DNA of 40,313 bases from sequence record MT496969.1; one strand, 5' to 3'. This DNA is from Escherichia phage Mt1B1_P3. Made by a program: the position numbers and the translations under genes. Below, one piece after another: positions 34,491 to 40,313 of the stretch (position 1 is the first letter of the stretch; each line of letters opens with the position of its first letter). The notes under the pieces were generated by a model that saw only the letters and a program-made list of their open reading frames with translations, searched no databases and was not told the origin of the DNA.

Positions 34491-37172
34491 TTACGCGAAT
34501 GCAAAGTCTGAAGACAAGATGTCTTCGATATTCAGTTTACCTTTCTTCGGAAGCTCAGGCAACTTGTCGCGCTGGCTCTCGTGAAGCTGGTATTCAAACT
34601 GCTCGTAGAAGTCAAGCAGCACATCGTTATCGCGGTAGGTCTCGACCATCGTCTCACGGACGCCACGGAACAGATACTCAGCGTCAGCCGGGATGGTCCC
34701 GAAGCTATCGTGAATCACTGCGAAGGACATCACGCCATACTTGCGGTGCGTGTGGACTACAGTCTTGCGTAGGTGGCTACCATCTTGTGAGTGGACGAAG
34801 TTCGGGCTAATGCCTGACTCCTGCTTGTGCTTGTCCAGCTCTTTCTTCGTGCCTTTGTTGACCGTAGGCTGAAGGTTGAATGACCCTAAGAACATCAGAT
34901 TCAGACGAGTGGTATCCTTCTTGCGGTATTCCTGCCAGACCGGGAAACCATCAGGTGTTACCCAGTGTACCGGAAGGCAAGGCTTCAGTATTTCTCCAGT
35001 CTTCTTGTCCTTCACTTCAGCAGCCAGCAGCTTGGCAGCACCCTGAAGCCACTTCATCGCGTCAACCGCAGCAACTACGGTCACGCTCACAGCTTCCCAA
35101 ATCATCTTAGCCATGAAGCGGGACGCTTGGCTTGGTTCGGTGAACATAGCGCCAGACCCTGAGTCAATCGCCGGCATCACGATGTCCTCATAAACTTGGT
35201 CTGCGAAGCCGTACTCTTTCGACCCATAGGCCAGAGTCATTACTGAACGCTTAGTGACCTTGCGTGACATGCCGTAAGTCAGCCACTGCCGGGCCAGCTC
35301 TCGTGTCCCCAGCTTGAGGCGTTCGGTAATCTCACCAGTTTTCTTGTCCTCGTGAGTTACCATCTCGTTGTCTGTGCCGTTAACCAGCAGGACTTTAAGC
35401 TCTTCCTCAATGCGGTCGGACACGATTCGGTAGATGTCTTGGACCTTACCGGAAGGCGTTAGGTTTACTGCATGTCCACCTATGTGATCACGAAGCATCG
35501 CGCTAAAGTGCTGAATCCCTGAGCATGACCCATCGAACGCTATCGGTAATGAGCAGGAGTAAGACAATCCGTGGTGCATTACACCAGCATACTCGAAGCA
35601 GAACGCAAGGAAGCAGAACGGAGAGTCTAACTTGCCCCACCACTCAATGCTATCCATCGGTGCCTTAGCAGCAGCCATAATGTTGTCGTGGTTGTCTTCC
35701 ACCCACTTGATGCGCTCCTCGAAGGTGACTTTATCAACACCCGCGCAGTTTGCACCATGGACCTTCAGCCATTTGAAACCGTCAGCACCAATAGGCTTAC
35801 CGACTGCCAGAGTAAGGAGACCTTTCTGCATGTCGTTACCCTGAGGGTTGAACATCGGAACAGCGTAGACGCGCCCACGCCAGTCCATGTTGTACGGGAA
35901 CCAGATGGCCTTGAACTGAGAGAACTTGTTCGCTTGGTTAACGATAAAGCTCAGTGACAATCTTCGCGACTGTCGGGCCTTCTCGCGGCGATAGATACCA
36001 GCAGCAGCCTTCTTCCATGCCTTGAGTTCCTCCTCAGTCTCACCCGCATAGTCTTCAGGCTTCAGTGGCTCCATCTGAGGGATGTCATCAATAGGCGTGT
36101 TGTTCAACTTCTCGACCATGTTCACCACGTCCAGTACCTTCTTGTTCACTTTCCAAGGTGTATTCTGGATGATATTCACAGCGTCATAGACTTCAGGCAT
36201 GTATACGTCTTCATAACGTGCCACCGCTGATTTAGACCCTAAGCGAATCAGGGGTAGCGGTCTGCGACCTTTGGCCCAGTACCCACCACCTACGACACCA
36301 GTCCACGGCTTAGGTGGAACGACGCAAGGCTGGTAGACTGGAGCTATACCCGCAAGGCTGAATCCTCGTTGTGCCATCTTCTTGACCCAGAAGTCTGACA
36401 GGTGGACCATCTCTACGTCAGCCGCTGCATTGCCAGCACCGTACCGCTTAAGCTCGACCAGTTGTGTTGACTGGATGACAATCTCAAGCATCTTGATGCC
36501 AACGTGGACAGCCTCTGTAGGACTCCAAGTTCCCCACGCATCTTCCAGTTGGCCTTGCTCCAGCATGGATGTCTCGACCGCTTGCATGTAGGCTTTCTTG
36601 TAGGACGCCCCGGCCCGCTTATTCAGGTTATCAGCTATCGCCTTCTTGAAGTGCTCTTTCTCTTTGTCACGGATGCGACCGAAGCGGATTTCGTCCTCAA
36701 GTGTGCGACCTATCGCGGAGGCCATCGGTGTAATCGGTATCCCTTCAGGCTTTACCAGCTTGGAGAGTATGACCTTCAGTATGATGACCGCAGCAGACTC
36801 GCAAGGGATACGCAGAGAGCGGTCCTTGACGGCCTTCTCTTCGGTGCTTAACATGGTGAACGCTACGCTAGGACGAGAGGTTGAAAGCTTCCCGTCTGGA
36901 CCTTCATACCACTCCCTGACGGCTTGCGCAATCTTAGGAACCAGAGTCTGCATCAAAGGCTTGGCGACCTGATTGTCTGCCAGTTCCCCGCGCTCAGTCT
37001 GTCGCTCAAGGTTTTTGATGAAACGTCGCTCGCCTTCAGTGTATGCCTCATGCTCAAGCTGAAGCTGCTTGACTGCAAGGTCCTTCCCGTAGTGGTCAGC
37101 CAGCAGGTTAAACGGCTCAATGGCGTTCGACACATCAGAGAAGTCGTGTTTATCAATAGAGATGACGCTCAT
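34491..37172 (-). CDS. 1: Single-subunit DNA-dependent RNA polymerase (T7 RNAP family)
   Basis: 893 aa; collinear with T7/T3 RNAP (KNDFSD...PFNxLADHYG, WFPYNMDWRGRVYAVPMFNPQGNDMxKGLLTLA, FDGSCSGIQHFSAMLRD, VMTLAYGS, IHDSFGT, C-terminal SDFAFA). Confidence 0.98.
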   Translation of the reverse strand: MSVISIDKHDFSDVSNAIEPFNLLADHYGKDLAVKQLQLEHEAYTEGERRFIKNLERQTERGELADNQVAKPLMQTLVPKIAQAVREWYEGPDGKLSTSRPSVAFTMLSTEEKAVKDRSLRIPCESAAVIILKVILSKLVKPEGIPITPMASAIGRTLEDEIRFGRIRDKEKEHFKKAIADNLNKRAGASYKKAYMQAVETSMLEQGQLEDAWGTWSPTEAVHVGIKMLEIVIQSTQLVELKRYGAGNAAADVEMVHLSDFWVKKMAQRGFSLAGIAPVYQPCVVPPKPWTGVVGGGYWAKGRRPLPLIRLGSKSAVARYEDVYMPEVYDAVNIIQNTPWKVNKKVLDVVNMVEKLNNTPIDDIPQMEPLKPEDYAGETEEELKAWKKAAAGIYRREKARQSRRLSLSFIVNQANKFSQFKAIWFPYNMDWRGRVYAVPMFNPQGNDMQKGLLTLAVGKPIGADGFKWLKVHGANCAGVDKVTFEERIKWVEDNHDNIMAAAKAPMDSIEWWGKLDSPFCFLAFCFEYAGVMHHGLSYSCSLPIAFDGSCSGIQHFSAMLRDHIGGHAVNLTPSGKVQDIYRIVSDRIEEELKVLLVNGTDNEMVTHEDKKTGEITERLKLGTRELARQWLTYGMSRKVTKRSVMTLAYGSKEYGFADQVYEDIVMPAIDSGSGAMFTEPSQASRFMAKMIWEAVSVTVVAAVDAMKWLQGAAKLLAAEVKDKKTGEILKPCLPVHWVTPDGFPVWQEYRKKDTTRLNLMFLGSFNLQPTVNKGTKKELDKHKQESGISPNFVHSQDGSHLRKTVVHTHRKYGVMSFAVIHDSFGTIPADAEYLFRGVRETMVETYRDNDVLLDFYEQFEYQLHESQRDKLPELPKKGKLNIEDILSSDFAFA

Positions 37173-37240
37173 ACTTAAAGTCCTTGTTATTAGTCTTTCA
37201 CTTAGAGTCTCTTTGGTCTTTCACTTGTAGTCTTAGACCT

Positions 37241-37263
37241 TTAGTCCTAAAGTGATAGTTAAG
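37241..37263 (-). promoter_or_regulatory. Degenerate phage-promoter-like sequence upstream of the RNAP gene
   Basis: Minus strand GACTTAACTATCACTTTAGGACTAA: upstream half matches consensus, but -3 and +3 deviate; functional status unknown. Confidence 0.3.
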
Positions 37264-37269
37264 TCATAA

Positions 37270-37530
37270 TCACTTGCATATCAGTTGGTTAGCGTGGAGA
37301 TGGCTGAAGTCACCATTGGTCGTGTGCTTGATGGTTGACCGTTGGTCCATCGCCTTCCAGCCTGAGACTAAAAGTTTACCATCGTCAGTGATCGGTCGTC
37401 CACCATACGCCAGACACATCAGTTCGTACTCATGGCCCTCAGCCTTCATGCGGCGATGTAAGAACTCGTCACGCTGTATTTGCTCTATACGGCTACGGAT
37501 AGATGGCTTGTTAATGTATACTGTTTTCAT
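37270..37530 (-). CDS. Early hypothetical protein (86 aa)
   Basis: ATG overlapping stop of upstream ORF (TAATG); no recognised motif. Confidence 0.55.
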   Translation of the reverse strand: MKTVYINKPSIRSRIEQIQRDEFLHRRMKAEGHEYELMCLAYGGRPITDDGKLLVSGWKAMDQRSTIKHTTNGDFSHLHANQLICK

Positions 37531-37727
37531 TACAGTTTGCTCCCAATAGTTGCTATATCCCAGACGTTCGCTAAGTTGCGCATGAATCGTCCGTTAGGTT
37601 GACGTACAGTCCAGCGGCCCAGACGTACATAGTTTAATTTGTATACTCTATGCGCTTTATTGATGTCTCTCACCAGCACGTAGGCGATAAGTCCATAGCC
37701 TATGGCTATCAATAGTGCAAGACTCAT
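37530..37727 (-). CDS. Early hypothetical small membrane protein (65 aa)
   Basis: N-terminal hydrophobic helix MSLALLIAIGYGLIAYVLV followed by basic region; weak RBS. Confidence 0.5.
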   Translation of the reverse strand: MSLALLIAIGYGLIAYVLVRDINKAHRVYKLNYVRLGRWTVRQPNGRFMRNLANVWDIATIGSKL

Positions 37728-37835
37728 AGTGATTTCCGTTTAATACAGTCGTATATCCCCCAAGCTATCAGAAAGATGACCGGAGATAAGCATACCAAAT
37801 GTCCAACACTCATAGTTAACCTCTATCAATTTAAG

Positions 37836-37888
37836 TGGTAATCTTTGAGGCCACCTATCAGTCGATGACCTCTCGTCTATCACTCAGC
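37836..37888 (-). promoter_or_regulatory. Putative RNase III processing hairpin (early region)
   Basis: AAGTGGTAATC...GAGGCCACC...GATGACCTCTCGTCTATCACTCAG; same family as elements at 38270, 39066, 39386. Confidence 0.45.
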
Positions 37889-37902
37889 TAGGCCTTACAC
37901 GG

Positions 37903-38250
37903 TTACACTTCCACCGATACAGTGGTCATCTTGCTTACAGTCAGCCCACCAGCAAGCTCAACCGCATAGCGTATCGCCTCCTCTTTGGACTTGAAGTCCT
38001 TTCCTGCAAGGTGGTAAATATCACCTGTTATTACCTTAGAAGGCCGGCGACTCACCGCAATGGCGTTTTCCATGGCAAGCTCACCACGGATATACTGAGT
38101 AAACCAGCGCTTCACCGAACTCGTTCCCACCCCGAACTTTTGGGCGGTTTCAGTCACCCTATCCATAACTCCCTCAGGCAGAGAGGTGTAGTAGTTAACA
38201 ACGTTGAGTTTAAATGCTACCGAGAATACATTGCGAGTTTTAGCAGTCAT
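37903..38250 (-). CDS. Early protein with transposase-type helix-turn-helix N-terminus (115 aa)
   Basis: FSVAFKLNVVNYY...TETAQKFGVGTSSVKRWFTQY resembles the IS3/IS911 OrfA HTH signature (FSxEFKLxVV...G.S...V..W..Y); GAAGGA RBS. Confidence 0.65.
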   Translation of the reverse strand: MTAKTRNVFSVAFKLNVVNYYTSLPEGVMDRVTETAQKFGVGTSSVKRWFTQYIRGELAMENAIAVSRRPSKVITGDIYHLAGKDFKSKEEAIRYAVELAGGLTVSKMTTVSVEV

Positions 38251-38269
38251 TATTCTTTCCTTCTGTAGT

Positions 38270-38328
38270 TATCAAGTGGTAATCACTCAGGCCACCATGT
38301 AGATGACCTGTAGTTTAACACTCAGTAC
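38270..38328 (-). promoter_or_regulatory. Putative RNase III processing hairpin (early region)
   Basis: Minus RNA can pair CAGGUCAU with GUGGCCUG (8 bp incl. G-U) around a 7-nt loop, flanked by imperfect lower stem. Confidence 0.45.
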
Positions 38329-38352
38329 CCACCTGTCAGCGTTATGGTCAGG

Positions 38353-38520
38353 CTATGGTAAATATTTCTTGTCCTCAGCGTGTAGGCTGTCGTGTATGCG
38401 CTTGCGTCTCCTGTAGACCACTTTCAAGAGGCGCATAGACTCCTCGTGGTTTAATCTCCCGGTCTTGACCATAAGCCGGGCGTTGGTGACGTGGTGCTGG
38501 CAGAGACCATAAGTTACCAT
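38353..38520 (-). CDS. Small early ORF (55 aa), hypothetical
   Basis: Hand translation MVTYGLCQHHVTNARLMVKTGRLNHEESMRLLKVVYRRRKRIHDSLHAEDKKYLP; ATG overlaps Ocr stop (TGATG), GAGGAGG 10 nt upstream. Confidence 0.4.
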   Translation of the reverse strand: MVTYGLCQHHVTNARLMVKTGRLNHEESMRLLKVVYRRRKRIHDSLHAEDKKYLP

Positions 38521-39050
38521 CACTCGCAGTCCTCCTCAGCAGCCTCAGGATCGAACACTACGTTATCGTTGATGTCTTCGACCTGCATGTGAAAACCTTC
38601 CTCATAGAGTTCTTTTGCACATGCAATAGCCTCGCAAAGTGATACAGCTGCCTCAATTATCTCGCCTGTTCTAGTGTCAACTACCCAATATTCAGCCTTT
38701 TCGTCCTCCTCTTCAGCCTTTTCGTCTTCCTCTTCAGCCTCAAACCAGACCACCTCAGAGCTATTAGACACATCGTTATACAGTGCCTCATAGATGCGAG
38801 CTTGTAGTATACGCGTTACGTCCTTGGTCTCAGGCATCAGCCCAGAGTCTTCGAACTCATTGTCAATACCATCAGCAGCCATCACCGTGTAAATCTCGTG
38901 GTAATAATGCGGAACATTACCGTCTACGACCTCATGCAGCGCATCACTGTAGTCATCGCCTTCAGCTATTTCGTCGCACTGAATACGCTCATTGAACAGC
39001 TCAACGGTTGCAGCCAGCAGCTCATAGTATGCGTTAGCGTTACGTTCCAT
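38520..39050 (-). CDS. ocr: Ocr-like DNA-mimic anti-restriction protein (gp0.3) with C-terminal extension
   Basis: Core [47 protein letters not shown] matches T7 Ocr ([46 protein letters not shown]); 176 aa vs 117 aa in T7, with duplicated EEDEKAE and about 55 extra C-terminal residues. Confidence 0.9.
   Translation of the reverse strand: [176 protein letters not shown]
38690..38740. repeat. 21-bp tandem duplication inside ocr (encodes EEDEKAE x2)
   Basis: cagccttttcgtcctcctctt / cagccttttcgtcttcctctt adjacent copies on plus strand. Confidence 0.8.
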
Positions 39051-39065
39051 AGTTATATCCTCTCA

Positions 39066-39124
39066 GTTGTTAGTGACTATCAGTCAGGCCGCTATAAGTC
39101 TAACGACCTGTAGTTAATCACTCT
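39066..39124 (-). promoter_or_regulatory. Putative RNase III processing hairpin (R0.5-like)
   Basis: GTTAGTGACTATCAGTCAGGCCGC-loop-ACGACCTGTAGTTAATCACT; imperfect long hairpin between first early ORF and ocr. Confidence 0.45.
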
Positions 39125-39378
39125 CAGTTAGCGAAATAAGGAGCTGAGACGCCCGCTGTAGGACTCACGGTTATCTGCGAATCTATCAGGTAGGTCTCGT
39201 TGTCTATGCGCACAGTATCTATGCTGTAGTTGCTGAACGGCTTGCTTGAGACCTTGCGCACTACCACACGGTGACGCGCTCCTGTCATCTCTTTAAGCTG
39301 AATCCACGCATAACCTTTAGTGTTCACGAATACTTCATTGTGATTAGTGATTGTGCTTAAGTGTTTCATAGTGTTCAT
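39124..39378 (-). CDS. First early ORF (84 aa), hypothetical
   Basis: Open frame fills the interval between two RNase III-like elements upstream of ocr; no obvious Shine-Dalgarno; no recognised motif. Confidence 0.45.
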   Translation of the reverse strand: MNTMKHLSTITNHNEVFVNTKGYAWIQLKEMTGARHRVVVRKVSSKPFSNYSIDTVRIDNETYLIDSQITVSPTAGVSAPYFAN

Positions 39379-39385
39379 CCGTTAA

Positions 39386-39449
39386 GTTAGTGACTATCAG
39401 TCAGGGCCTTCAGATGTAGACTCAAAGGCCCTGTAGTTAGTCGCTATCT
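39386..39449 (-). promoter_or_regulatory. Putative RNase III processing hairpin (R0.3-like) in early leader
   Basis: Perfect 8-bp inverted repeat AGGGCCTT (39403-39410) / AAGGCCCT (39425-39432) with 14-nt loop, flanked by imperfectly complementary arms. Confidence 0.5.
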
Positions 39450-39678
39450 GCGTACATTAAGAGTTTATCCAGATTGTTAAAGAGCATTGTTGGCTGTCCA
39501 ACTCGGGGTATTGCGTAGTTCCCAACGTTCTCTGTTACCGCGCTATAGGTAGTAACTTAGTATCCGACAATCAGACCTTCTTCACTCGGTGAAGCCCGGC
39601 CCCTCAATTTACTCTTAGTGAGGCGGTTAGAGTGTACCTGCTACCAATTCCGTGGTGGCGTCTTACTGCTTTAGATTC

Positions 39679-39708
39679 ATAATACTTTAATTATATACTT
39701 CTTGTCAA
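39679..39708 (-). promoter_or_regulatory. Candidate host sigma70 early promoter
   Basis: Minus strand TTGACA (plus 39703-39708) then 18 nt then TATTAT (plus 39679-39684); correct orientation for early genes. Only one of the expected multiple early promoters could be picked out by eye. Confidence 0.35.
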
Positions 39709-39999
39709 CTACTTTCTGTCGGTTGCCTGTTGTTCGTATGTCTTACAGGCTGACTACTTAACCGGACCGGACCGGCGTCTTCACTATCCGGTTGTTGCCG
39801 TGTCGTGTTGACGGAAGCTATTAGGCCATATCCTTGACCTATAGTCAATAGGTAATTTGAAATAATACTGATTAAGCTATCGTCGGCCTCATGGTGTAAG
39901 AGGATATAGTCTTTGACTAACATGTCTTGGACCTTAAGTCTATAGCTCTGTGTCTAGTAACTGTAGATCTATGACTGTAGGTGTTGGTGTCTTATGGTT

Positions 40000-40076
40000 G
40001 AGACTGTAGGTTAGTGAGACTGTAGGTTAGTGAGACTGTAGGTTAGTGAGACTGTAGGTTAGTGAGACTGTAGGTG
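40000..40076. repeat. Tandem 16-bp repeats (gagactgtaggttagt x4.8) adjacent to right DTR
   Basis: Four exact copies plus a partial one, preceded by a degenerate copy at 39971-39983. Confidence 0.9.
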
Positions 40077-40111
40077 TAGGACGTAATGTTATACTATAAC
40101 ACTATACAGAT

Positions 40112-40313
40112 AGAGACTCAAAGAAGACCTATAGCCTCTACCTATCGTCCTTCCATAAGCCATAGCCTAGACCTATCGTTGACCTGAAGTCCTGACCATC
40201 GGTCCAACCTTATGACAGACTGGCTGTGACTGCAAGGAGTAGTAACGGGTAGGGCCTTTGGTCTGGACTTAAAGAGGGCCTATGGGGAGACTTGAGGTTC
40301 TTGAACTGTGAGA
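40112..40313. repeat. Right direct terminal repeat (DTR)
   Basis: Identical to bases 1-202. Confidence 0.85.

Follow-up and report, generated by a model that had tools for sequence, protein, structure and literature searches.

The ocr gene of Escherichia phage Mt1B1_P3 appears to encode a K1F-type long Ocr, in which a DNA-mimic core like that of T7 carries a tethered acidic module that has been lost repeatedly and is a putative binder of host defenses; we put the probability of this reading as a whole at about 0.8. Ocr is a textbook DNA-mimic anti-restriction protein that is also known to set off several "anti-anti-restriction" systems, and mechanistic work on it has dealt almost exclusively with the 117-aa protein of T7, the one other homologue that we found to have been tested being SP6 Gp5, against BREX and PARIS. 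Our literature search, which combined Ocr with K1F, Kayfunavirus, gp0.3, and homologues, returned no description of an extra domain or a long form and no paper on a domain that changes the anti-defense spectrum. Genome announcements label the 169-aa protein "DNA mimic ocr" without comment (e.g., PMC8861465).

The ocr gene and its surroundings

The window, meaning the whole 40,313-nucleotide stretch of DNA that was analyzed (MT496969.1), is the complete genome of a K1F-like phage of the T7 family, genus Kayfunavirus, in reversed orientation. Over 801 bases around ocr, its identity is 100% to Kayfunavirus MT1B1P3, 99.6% to vB_EcoA_ASO2B, and 91.9% to K1F, and its late region is 98.8% identical to that of ASO2B. 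The gene is a single frame at 38520-39050 on the minus strand, with an ATG start and without a frameshift or internal stop, and its product, which bears a net charge of -42, is 100% identical to the "Ocr protein" of Escherichia phage vB_EcoA_ASO2B. A sequence-only reading of this DNA had called the product an Ocr homologue with a conserved DNA-mimic core, and our searches bear this out: Pfam ocr (PF08684) matches aa 7-99 (E=2.4e-30; 105.4 bits against a curated cutoff of 25), T7 Ocr (PDB 1s7z) was recovered in a search of PDB sequences (E=1.3e-26), and the PHROG 2568 profile, "ocr-like anti-restriction," spans aa 1-154. The gene and its parts are as follows.

38520..39050, minus strand: ocr (gene 0.3) of a K1F-like Kayfunavirus, 176 aa, stop TGA at 38520-38522 (open reading frame list, PF08684, PHROG 2568)
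38739..39050, minus strand: DNA-mimic core, aa 1-104; three helices (7-25, 35-59, 75-95), then NSSEVVWFE; net charge -19
38889..38891, minus strand: codon TAC of Tyr54, which aligns with T7 Ocr F54 (dimer interface, PARIS-escape site)
38691..38738, minus strand: acidic linker, aa 105-120, 16 aa, net charge -9, predicted disordered (pLDDT <50 for aa 109-117)
38691..38740, no strand assigned: 21-bp tandem repeat, 2.4 copies, of which K1F has one unit fewer (Tandem Repeats Finder, repeat search, alignments)
38703..38742, no strand assigned: upstream copies of the 19-nt repeat flanking the module (38703..38721 and 38724..38742), inside the acidic tract (repeat search)
38547..38690, minus strand: accessory module, aa 121-168 (YWVVD...VVFDP), beta-beta-alpha-beta-beta, net charge -9 (AlphaFold2 models, conservation)
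38529..38547, no strand assigned: downstream copy of the imperfect 19-nt direct repeat flanking the module (repeat search)
38523..38546, minus strand: C-terminal acidic tail, aa 169-176 (EAAEEDCE), whose ...EDCE end is common to same-clade short forms (alignments of long and short forms)

A small gene of 55-56 aa (38353-38520, minus strand) adjoins ocr downstream. The ocr stop and its ATG share bases (TGATG), an overlap that points to translational coupling of the two genes, and homologues in the same position carry a new Pfam family, PF26807 (Phage_T7_GP04). The early genes are flanked by hairpins, each with an internal bubble, at 39051-39130 and 39379-39460 (minus strand). They are conserved and stable (-24 and -27 kcal/mol, z = -4.4), have CUACAGG...CCUGACUGAUAGUCAC as a recurring motif, and resemble T7-type RNase III processing sites; the ASO2B annotation calls them terminators, and an Rfam scan of 37000-40313 gave no match, hairpins included. 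Upstream of the early promoters, at ~39990-40070 and close to the left end of the genome, a 16-nt unit (GTTAGTGAGACTGTAG) occurs in about five tandem copies, an array that recalls the short repeat arrays adjoining the T7 terminal repeats.

The DNA-mimic core and residue 54

AlphaFold2, run on the monomer with a 120-sequence alignment, predicted core helices at 7-25, 35-59, and 75-95, in keeping with the helical fold of T7 Ocr. The core also keeps the acidic block that corresponds to T7 aa 59-91, with D60, D63, E65, E67, D68, E74, and D77 aligning with acidic residues of T7 Ocr, and mutation has shown this central block of T7 Ocr to be essential for activity (PMC3439906). Since T7 Ocr99, a truncation ending at residue 99, keeps full activity against EcoKI (PMC3439906), the anti-type-I activity of the window protein should not depend on residues after about aa 100. 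Homology strongly suggests that the window Ocr inhibits type I restriction. Its core (aa 1-104) would almost certainly dimerize and occupy the groove in which type I restriction-modification enzymes bind DNA, and it probably blocks BREX likewise. Beyond the core, the two proteins part: in T7 Ocr (gp0.3, PDB 1S7Z; 117 aa), helix D runs into the acidic tail (…DLLNEYLEEVEEYEEDEE), whereas the window Ocr diverges after about aa 95 (NSSEVVWFE) and continues with a 16-aa linker, the 48-aa module, and an EEDCE tail.

In the window Ocr, a tyrosine takes the place of T7 F54, while L82, the other dimer-interface residue that we aligned, is conserved. Among the homologues found with the HYY..I motif, residue 54 is Phe in 182 and Tyr only in the window protein and the identical ASO2B protein. 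F54 of T7 Ocr lies in the dimer interface and contacts AriA, and the F54V change lets T7 escape PARIS and EcoR22I (PMC9122126, PMC10802264); AriA captures Ocr as a monomer, binding F54 and L82 of the dimer interface (PMC10802264).

One explanation of the long form is that the module, as a bulky tethered domain, and the acidic linker prevent Ocr from being captured by sensors (PARIS AriA, Ronin, or EcoR22I-type) while leaving restriction inhibition intact. Ocr is indeed a known trigger of PARIS, Ronin, and EcoR22I (PMC9122126 and PMC10802264 among the sources), the unique F54Y at the PARIS-escape and AriA-contact residue suggests pressure on sensing, and an arms race would fit both the presence/absence polymorphism described below for the module and the fast evolution of its exposed helix. 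However, AriA binds the Ocr monomer at F54 and L82, which are far from the C-terminus along the sequence, and a linker that ranges from 2 to 21 aa does not point to a precise steric block. We consider such shielding unlikely.

Distribution of the long form

The sequence-only reading had treated the length of the protein and its C-terminal extension as unusual. The extension is there, with the sequence it quoted but a length of 56 residues (aa 121-176) rather than 55, and both extension and length turn out to be standard in K1F-like phages. K1F gp0.3 (YP_338090.1), at 169 aa, is colinear with the window protein over its whole length, with 96% identity and one 7-aa indel as the only difference in length. 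It shares its two-part architecture with the Kayfunavirus "Ocr-like" proteins (PHROG 2568) and with the window protein, and its neighboring genes are the same; K1F gp0.3 has one EEDEKAE unit and F54, whereas the window protein has two units and Y54. In a search of 5.8 billion proteins, at least 119 clusters (90% identity) contained proteins of 162-179 aa from an intact open reading frame, and query coverage was 98-100% for 118 of these 119 long clusters, with P0112 at 89%.

A tblastn search with the last 56 residues alone matched 70 phage records. Where these are correctly annotated, the matched feature is an Ocr or antirestriction gene; the other records are mislabeled or unannotated. Any Ocr-like match was found in 572 phage records, 73 of which cover at least 80% of the long protein. 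In several GenBank phage records, the same ocr gene is labeled "protein kinase," "Phage protein kinase," or "N4-like RNA polymerase"; such kinase and polymerase labels (records under hits H35, H37, H49, H50, H54, H63/H111, H131, H144, and H145) look like propagated misannotations of gene 0.3.

A divergent clade of modules, with 35-40% identity over the module and the same place in Ocr, is carried by Stenotrophomonas phage IME15, several Aeromonas phages, Escherichia phage Ebrios, and Kosakonia phage Kc166A, and Ebrios is classified in Teseptimavirus, T7's own genus. Among 66 Ocr loci from IMG/VR, the only long forms were three of the Kayfunavirus type and one of the divergent IME15 type (L047, 173 aa). 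Judging by these records, the long form is the standard architecture of K1F-like phages and no peculiarity of Mt1B1_P3. The sequence-only reading had allowed for an extension that is standard in characterized Ocr proteins; standard it is, but in the literature that we searched its carriers are functionally uncharacterized.

Structure, conservation, and relatives of the accessory module

The module comprises about 48 aa between the acidic tract and the conserved ...EEDCE tail. In the AlphaFold2 model, aa 121-166 form a confident beta-beta-alpha-beta-beta unit (block pLDDT 85-88), the linker is of low confidence (pLDDT <50 for aa 109-117), and a second model, of aa 96-176 alone, gave the same unit (pLDDT 85-89 over the two models). 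The added C-terminal domain that had been proposed from the sequence is thus predicted to be an autonomous fold on a disordered linker. Six residues (V123, A141, G152, V157, E158, and P168) are invariant across both the Kayfunavirus clade and the divergent IME15/Ebrios type.

Selection was estimated by Nei-Gojobori pN/pS on a set of 13 long genes of Kayfunavirus, drawn from phage records in GenBank. The core (aa 1-104) gave 0.16-0.20 and the whole module (aa 121-168) gave 0.38-0.45. Within the module, the value was 0.42 for strands 1 and 2 (aa 121-136), 0.91 for the helix region (aa 137-153), and 0.11 for the C-terminal hairpin with its DP motif (aa 154-168). By inspection, the variable helix positions lie on a face expected to be exposed and fall into a few discrete allelic classes. 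Between these classes, the net charge of the module varies from about -4 to -9 by hand count, which argues that its role is not simply to add more DNA-like charge. Together, these findings show that the module is a real, constrained protein domain under purifying selection, with one fast-evolving surface.

No in-frame ATG, GTG, or TTG occurs at the junction of linker and module, so an internal translation start for the module is unsupported. A metal site at C144, H154, and C175 was considered and dropped, since the IME15/Ebrios clade lacks these residues. In the Kayfunavirus/Klebsiella-phage clade (L010-L046; window aa 174-176), long and short forms alike have a conserved cysteine in the acidic tail (...EDCE, ...EDCDD, or ...GCND); it is absent from the tails of T7-type and IME15-type Ocr.

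Searches for relatives of the module returned little. With the module as query against 1.84 billion representatives, phmmer gave one match, a spurious cadherin-like protein with V.D.NDN repeats, and no standalone homologue. Two profile searches recovered only fragments of ocr (P0122, P0123, and P0124, the last being a core-deleted remnant) and no standalone module, although their sensitivity for embedded domains is doubtful since they missed known long Ocr proteins too. A tblastn search of phage genomes found no standalone homologue either; the module alone gave nothing significant against Pfam, PHROGs, or PDB sequences, and Foldseek gave no match at E<1e-3 against BFVD. A weak Pfam match to MA3 (E 0.02, below the cutoff) was dismissed. 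Several uncharacterized phage proteins of 45-65 aa, none of them annotated, superpose on the module at 1.4-2 Å, which is generic similarity among small alpha/beta folds. At the level of sequence, the module is an orphan.

The ClpS core, T4 Dmd, and AcrIF9 resemble the module in fold only, with 8-20% identity, no Pfam or PDB sequence match, and scores in the range of generic fold similarity. ClpS (PF02617), the N-degron adaptor, was rejected because its ~80-aa beta-alpha-alpha-beta-alpha-beta core has a different topology: the module matches about half of it, and the two helices that build the N-degron pocket have no counterpart. The T4 Dmd antitoxin, an inhibitor of the RnlA/LsoA toxins, was also set aside, the module showing no sequence or profile similarity to it. 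We assign the module to no known family.

These searches bear on a further suggestion of the sequence-only reading, that the long frame is ocr fused to a second, once-independent early gene, and on the alternative that it is an artifact of a frameshift or read-through joining two genes. The autonomous fold predicted for the module would suit a fusion, and one set of contigs does have ocr as a 117-aa and a 59-aa open reading frame. This split (L006, 2167-2680; also L007 and L008; Logan SRR33193082-84), however, comes from a +1 insertion of a G into a GGG run at the opening codons of the module, in an otherwise normal long gene. The module was found only within Ocr or broken ocr fragments, and since no free-standing copy of it emerged from phmmer, the two profile searches, or tblastn of phage genomes, fusion to a second early gene is without support. 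A sequencing frameshift is excluded by the frame being intact here and in at least 119 clusters. Moreover, the ...EEDCE tail follows the module, which shows that the module was inserted within the acidic tail of Ocr and not appended after it as a gene would be. Taken as a whole, an origin by fusion or artifact is highly improbable.

Gain and loss of the module

We aligned the long form with three short forms from its clade, those of PE3-1 (110 aa), Klebsiella phage Pkp-1 (114 aa), and P0120 (114 aa). The short forms are 92-93% identical to the window protein through ...VVWFEAEE, and the core and acidic tract of PE3-1 and Pkp-1 are like those of the window protein, but the module is absent. Pkp-1 and P0120 end in ...EEDCE and PE3-1 stops within the acidic tract (...AEEGDE), whereas the long form ends in ...AAEEDCE. 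The DNA on either side of the module is near-identical in long and short genes.

The module is flanked by imperfect 19-nt direct repeats, 38529-38547 being 79-84% identical to 38703-38721 and 38724-38742, and the short-form junctions (FEAEEDCE or AEESDEEDCE) are what a deletion between such repeats would give. In a neighbor-joining tree of the core, built from 186 non-redundant sequences, short forms are single leaves inside long-form clades, and Fitch parsimony requires at least 14 state changes; the number of independent losses is approximate since the tree rests on ~105 highly similar residues, is shallow, and ignores recombination. The short forms in the genus look like deletions between the flanking repeats, scattered over the core tree, and the module is clearly a facultative, accessory part of the protein.

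Other routes to altered forms were also seen. The +1 G insertion in L006-L008, whether natural or introduced in assembly, leads to an Ocr without the module, and in P0112 a deletion fuses the module to the downstream gp0.4-like gene. In L086 (3001-3174; also L087 and L088), a 57-aa remnant joins 11 N-terminal Ocr residues to the second half of a Kc166A-type module, with the core deleted. This remnant recurs in three unrelated samples, which suggests selection for the loss of Ocr in some hosts. A T7-type Ocr of 140 aa (L057, IMGVR_UViG_638277131) has its acidic tail replaced by an unrelated 32-aa sequence, probably through a deletion that fused gene 0.3 to a downstream frame.

A passenger domain that is nearly dispensable would also fit the frequent loss of the module and the pN/pS near 1 of its helix. 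The module would then be near-neutral, or would stabilize or solubilize the protein without a target of its own, and long and short forms would be functionally equal. Repeated loss of the module while the gene is retained, the activity of T7 Ocr with nothing past aa 99 (PMC3439906), and the value of ~0.9 for the helix all suit such a passenger. Against it, two divergent clades and several genera have kept the module along with its invariant residues, its hairpin is strongly constrained (pN/pS 0.11), and long forms outnumber short forms in the Kayfunavirus clade of the protein search. We regard the passenger explanation as somewhat unlikely.

The acidic linker and its 21-bp repeat

The sequence-only reading had described a single 176-aa frame with a repeat-expanded acidic tract, in which a 21-bp repeat encodes EEDEKAE twice. 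The open reading frame list, Tandem Repeats Finder, and the codons themselves agree with this description. The repeat at 38691-38740 has a period of 21, 2.4 copies, 96% matches, and a score of 93, and its codons (GAA GAG GAA GAC GAA AAG GCT / GAA GAG GAG GAC GAA AAG GCT) give EEDEKAE twice. The expansion amounts to one 7-aa unit relative to K1F gp0.3, and since K1F lacks exactly one unit, the repeat is no chance occurrence but a true indel polymorphism.

The acidic tract that separates VVWFE from YWVVD spans 2-21 aa over the long family, with little sequence conservation; clusters P0001 and P0007 have 16-aa tracts like that of the window, and the acidic tails of T7-type Ocr proteins are equally variable. 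From these comparisons, we read the 21-bp duplication as one length state of a slippage-prone, length-tolerant linker, a minor polymorphism, and the extra EEDEKAE unit is probably of little consequence. The duplication could instead be adaptive in itself, with a longer acidic linker tuning reach or adding DNA-like charge. The extra unit does contribute five acidic residues and one basic residue, and comparable 16-aa tracts exist in at least two other clusters. However, the linker varies over its whole range without a conserved sequence, T7-type tails vary just as much, and a repeat that is 96% perfect points to a recent slippage event. An adaptive duplication is thus very unlikely.

A proposed function for the module

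We propose that a disordered poly-acidic linker tethers the ~48-aa acidic module to the core, with the ...EEDCE tail that is usual in the family coming after the module. The GAA/GAG-rich repeats that encode the linker would expand and contract by slippage, and since the same acidic repeats flank the module, recombination between them would remove it cleanly, making it a facultative part with a history of many losses. In T7 Ocr, the dimer interface contains F54 and L82, and aa 59-91 are central (PMC3439906, PMC10802264), which suggests that the C-terminus points away from the center of the dimer. By these published T7 data, one module would sit at each tip of the dimer.

What the module might do there is a more tentative matter. 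We lean toward a tethered, independent second binding surface for a host protein in or alongside the defense complexes that Ocr targets, which is possible rather than probable. In such an arrangement, the module would add avidity or broaden the range of defenses countered; the conserved beta-hairpin would serve as a constant contact or structural core, and the fast-evolving exposed helix as an arms-race surface. This tethered-binder reading is favored by the unconstrained length of the linker, the autonomous fold, the repeated loss, and the combination of a conserved hairpin with a fast-changing helix. The unconstrained linker in particular argues for a tethered autonomous module and not a rigid extension of the mimic.

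It is also conceivable, if rather doubtful, that the module is a previously unrecognized anti-defense domain that neutralizes a second host system or disarms Ocr-sensing systems such as PARIS, Ronin, and EcoR22I-like enzymes. If so, about one in seven Ocr-encoding phage genomes (about 80 of the 572 searched) would carry a bifunctional counter-defense protein, whose second function comes and goes by repeat-mediated deletion.

A considerable group of natural Ocr proteins has an extra conserved domain that has apparently gone unexamined. The group includes those of K1F-like phages employed against pathogenic E. coli and, with Ebrios, one from T7's own genus. If the module alters which defenses are blocked or triggered, this would bear on host-range prediction and phage-therapy design and would add a small anti-defense fold; if it has no measurable effect, it would be a well-documented case of a fast-evolving early gene that gains and loses a module through repeats. 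In either case, what remains of interest is a widespread, conserved, and recurrently lost accessory domain on a model anti-defense protein, together with an F54Y change unique to this lineage.
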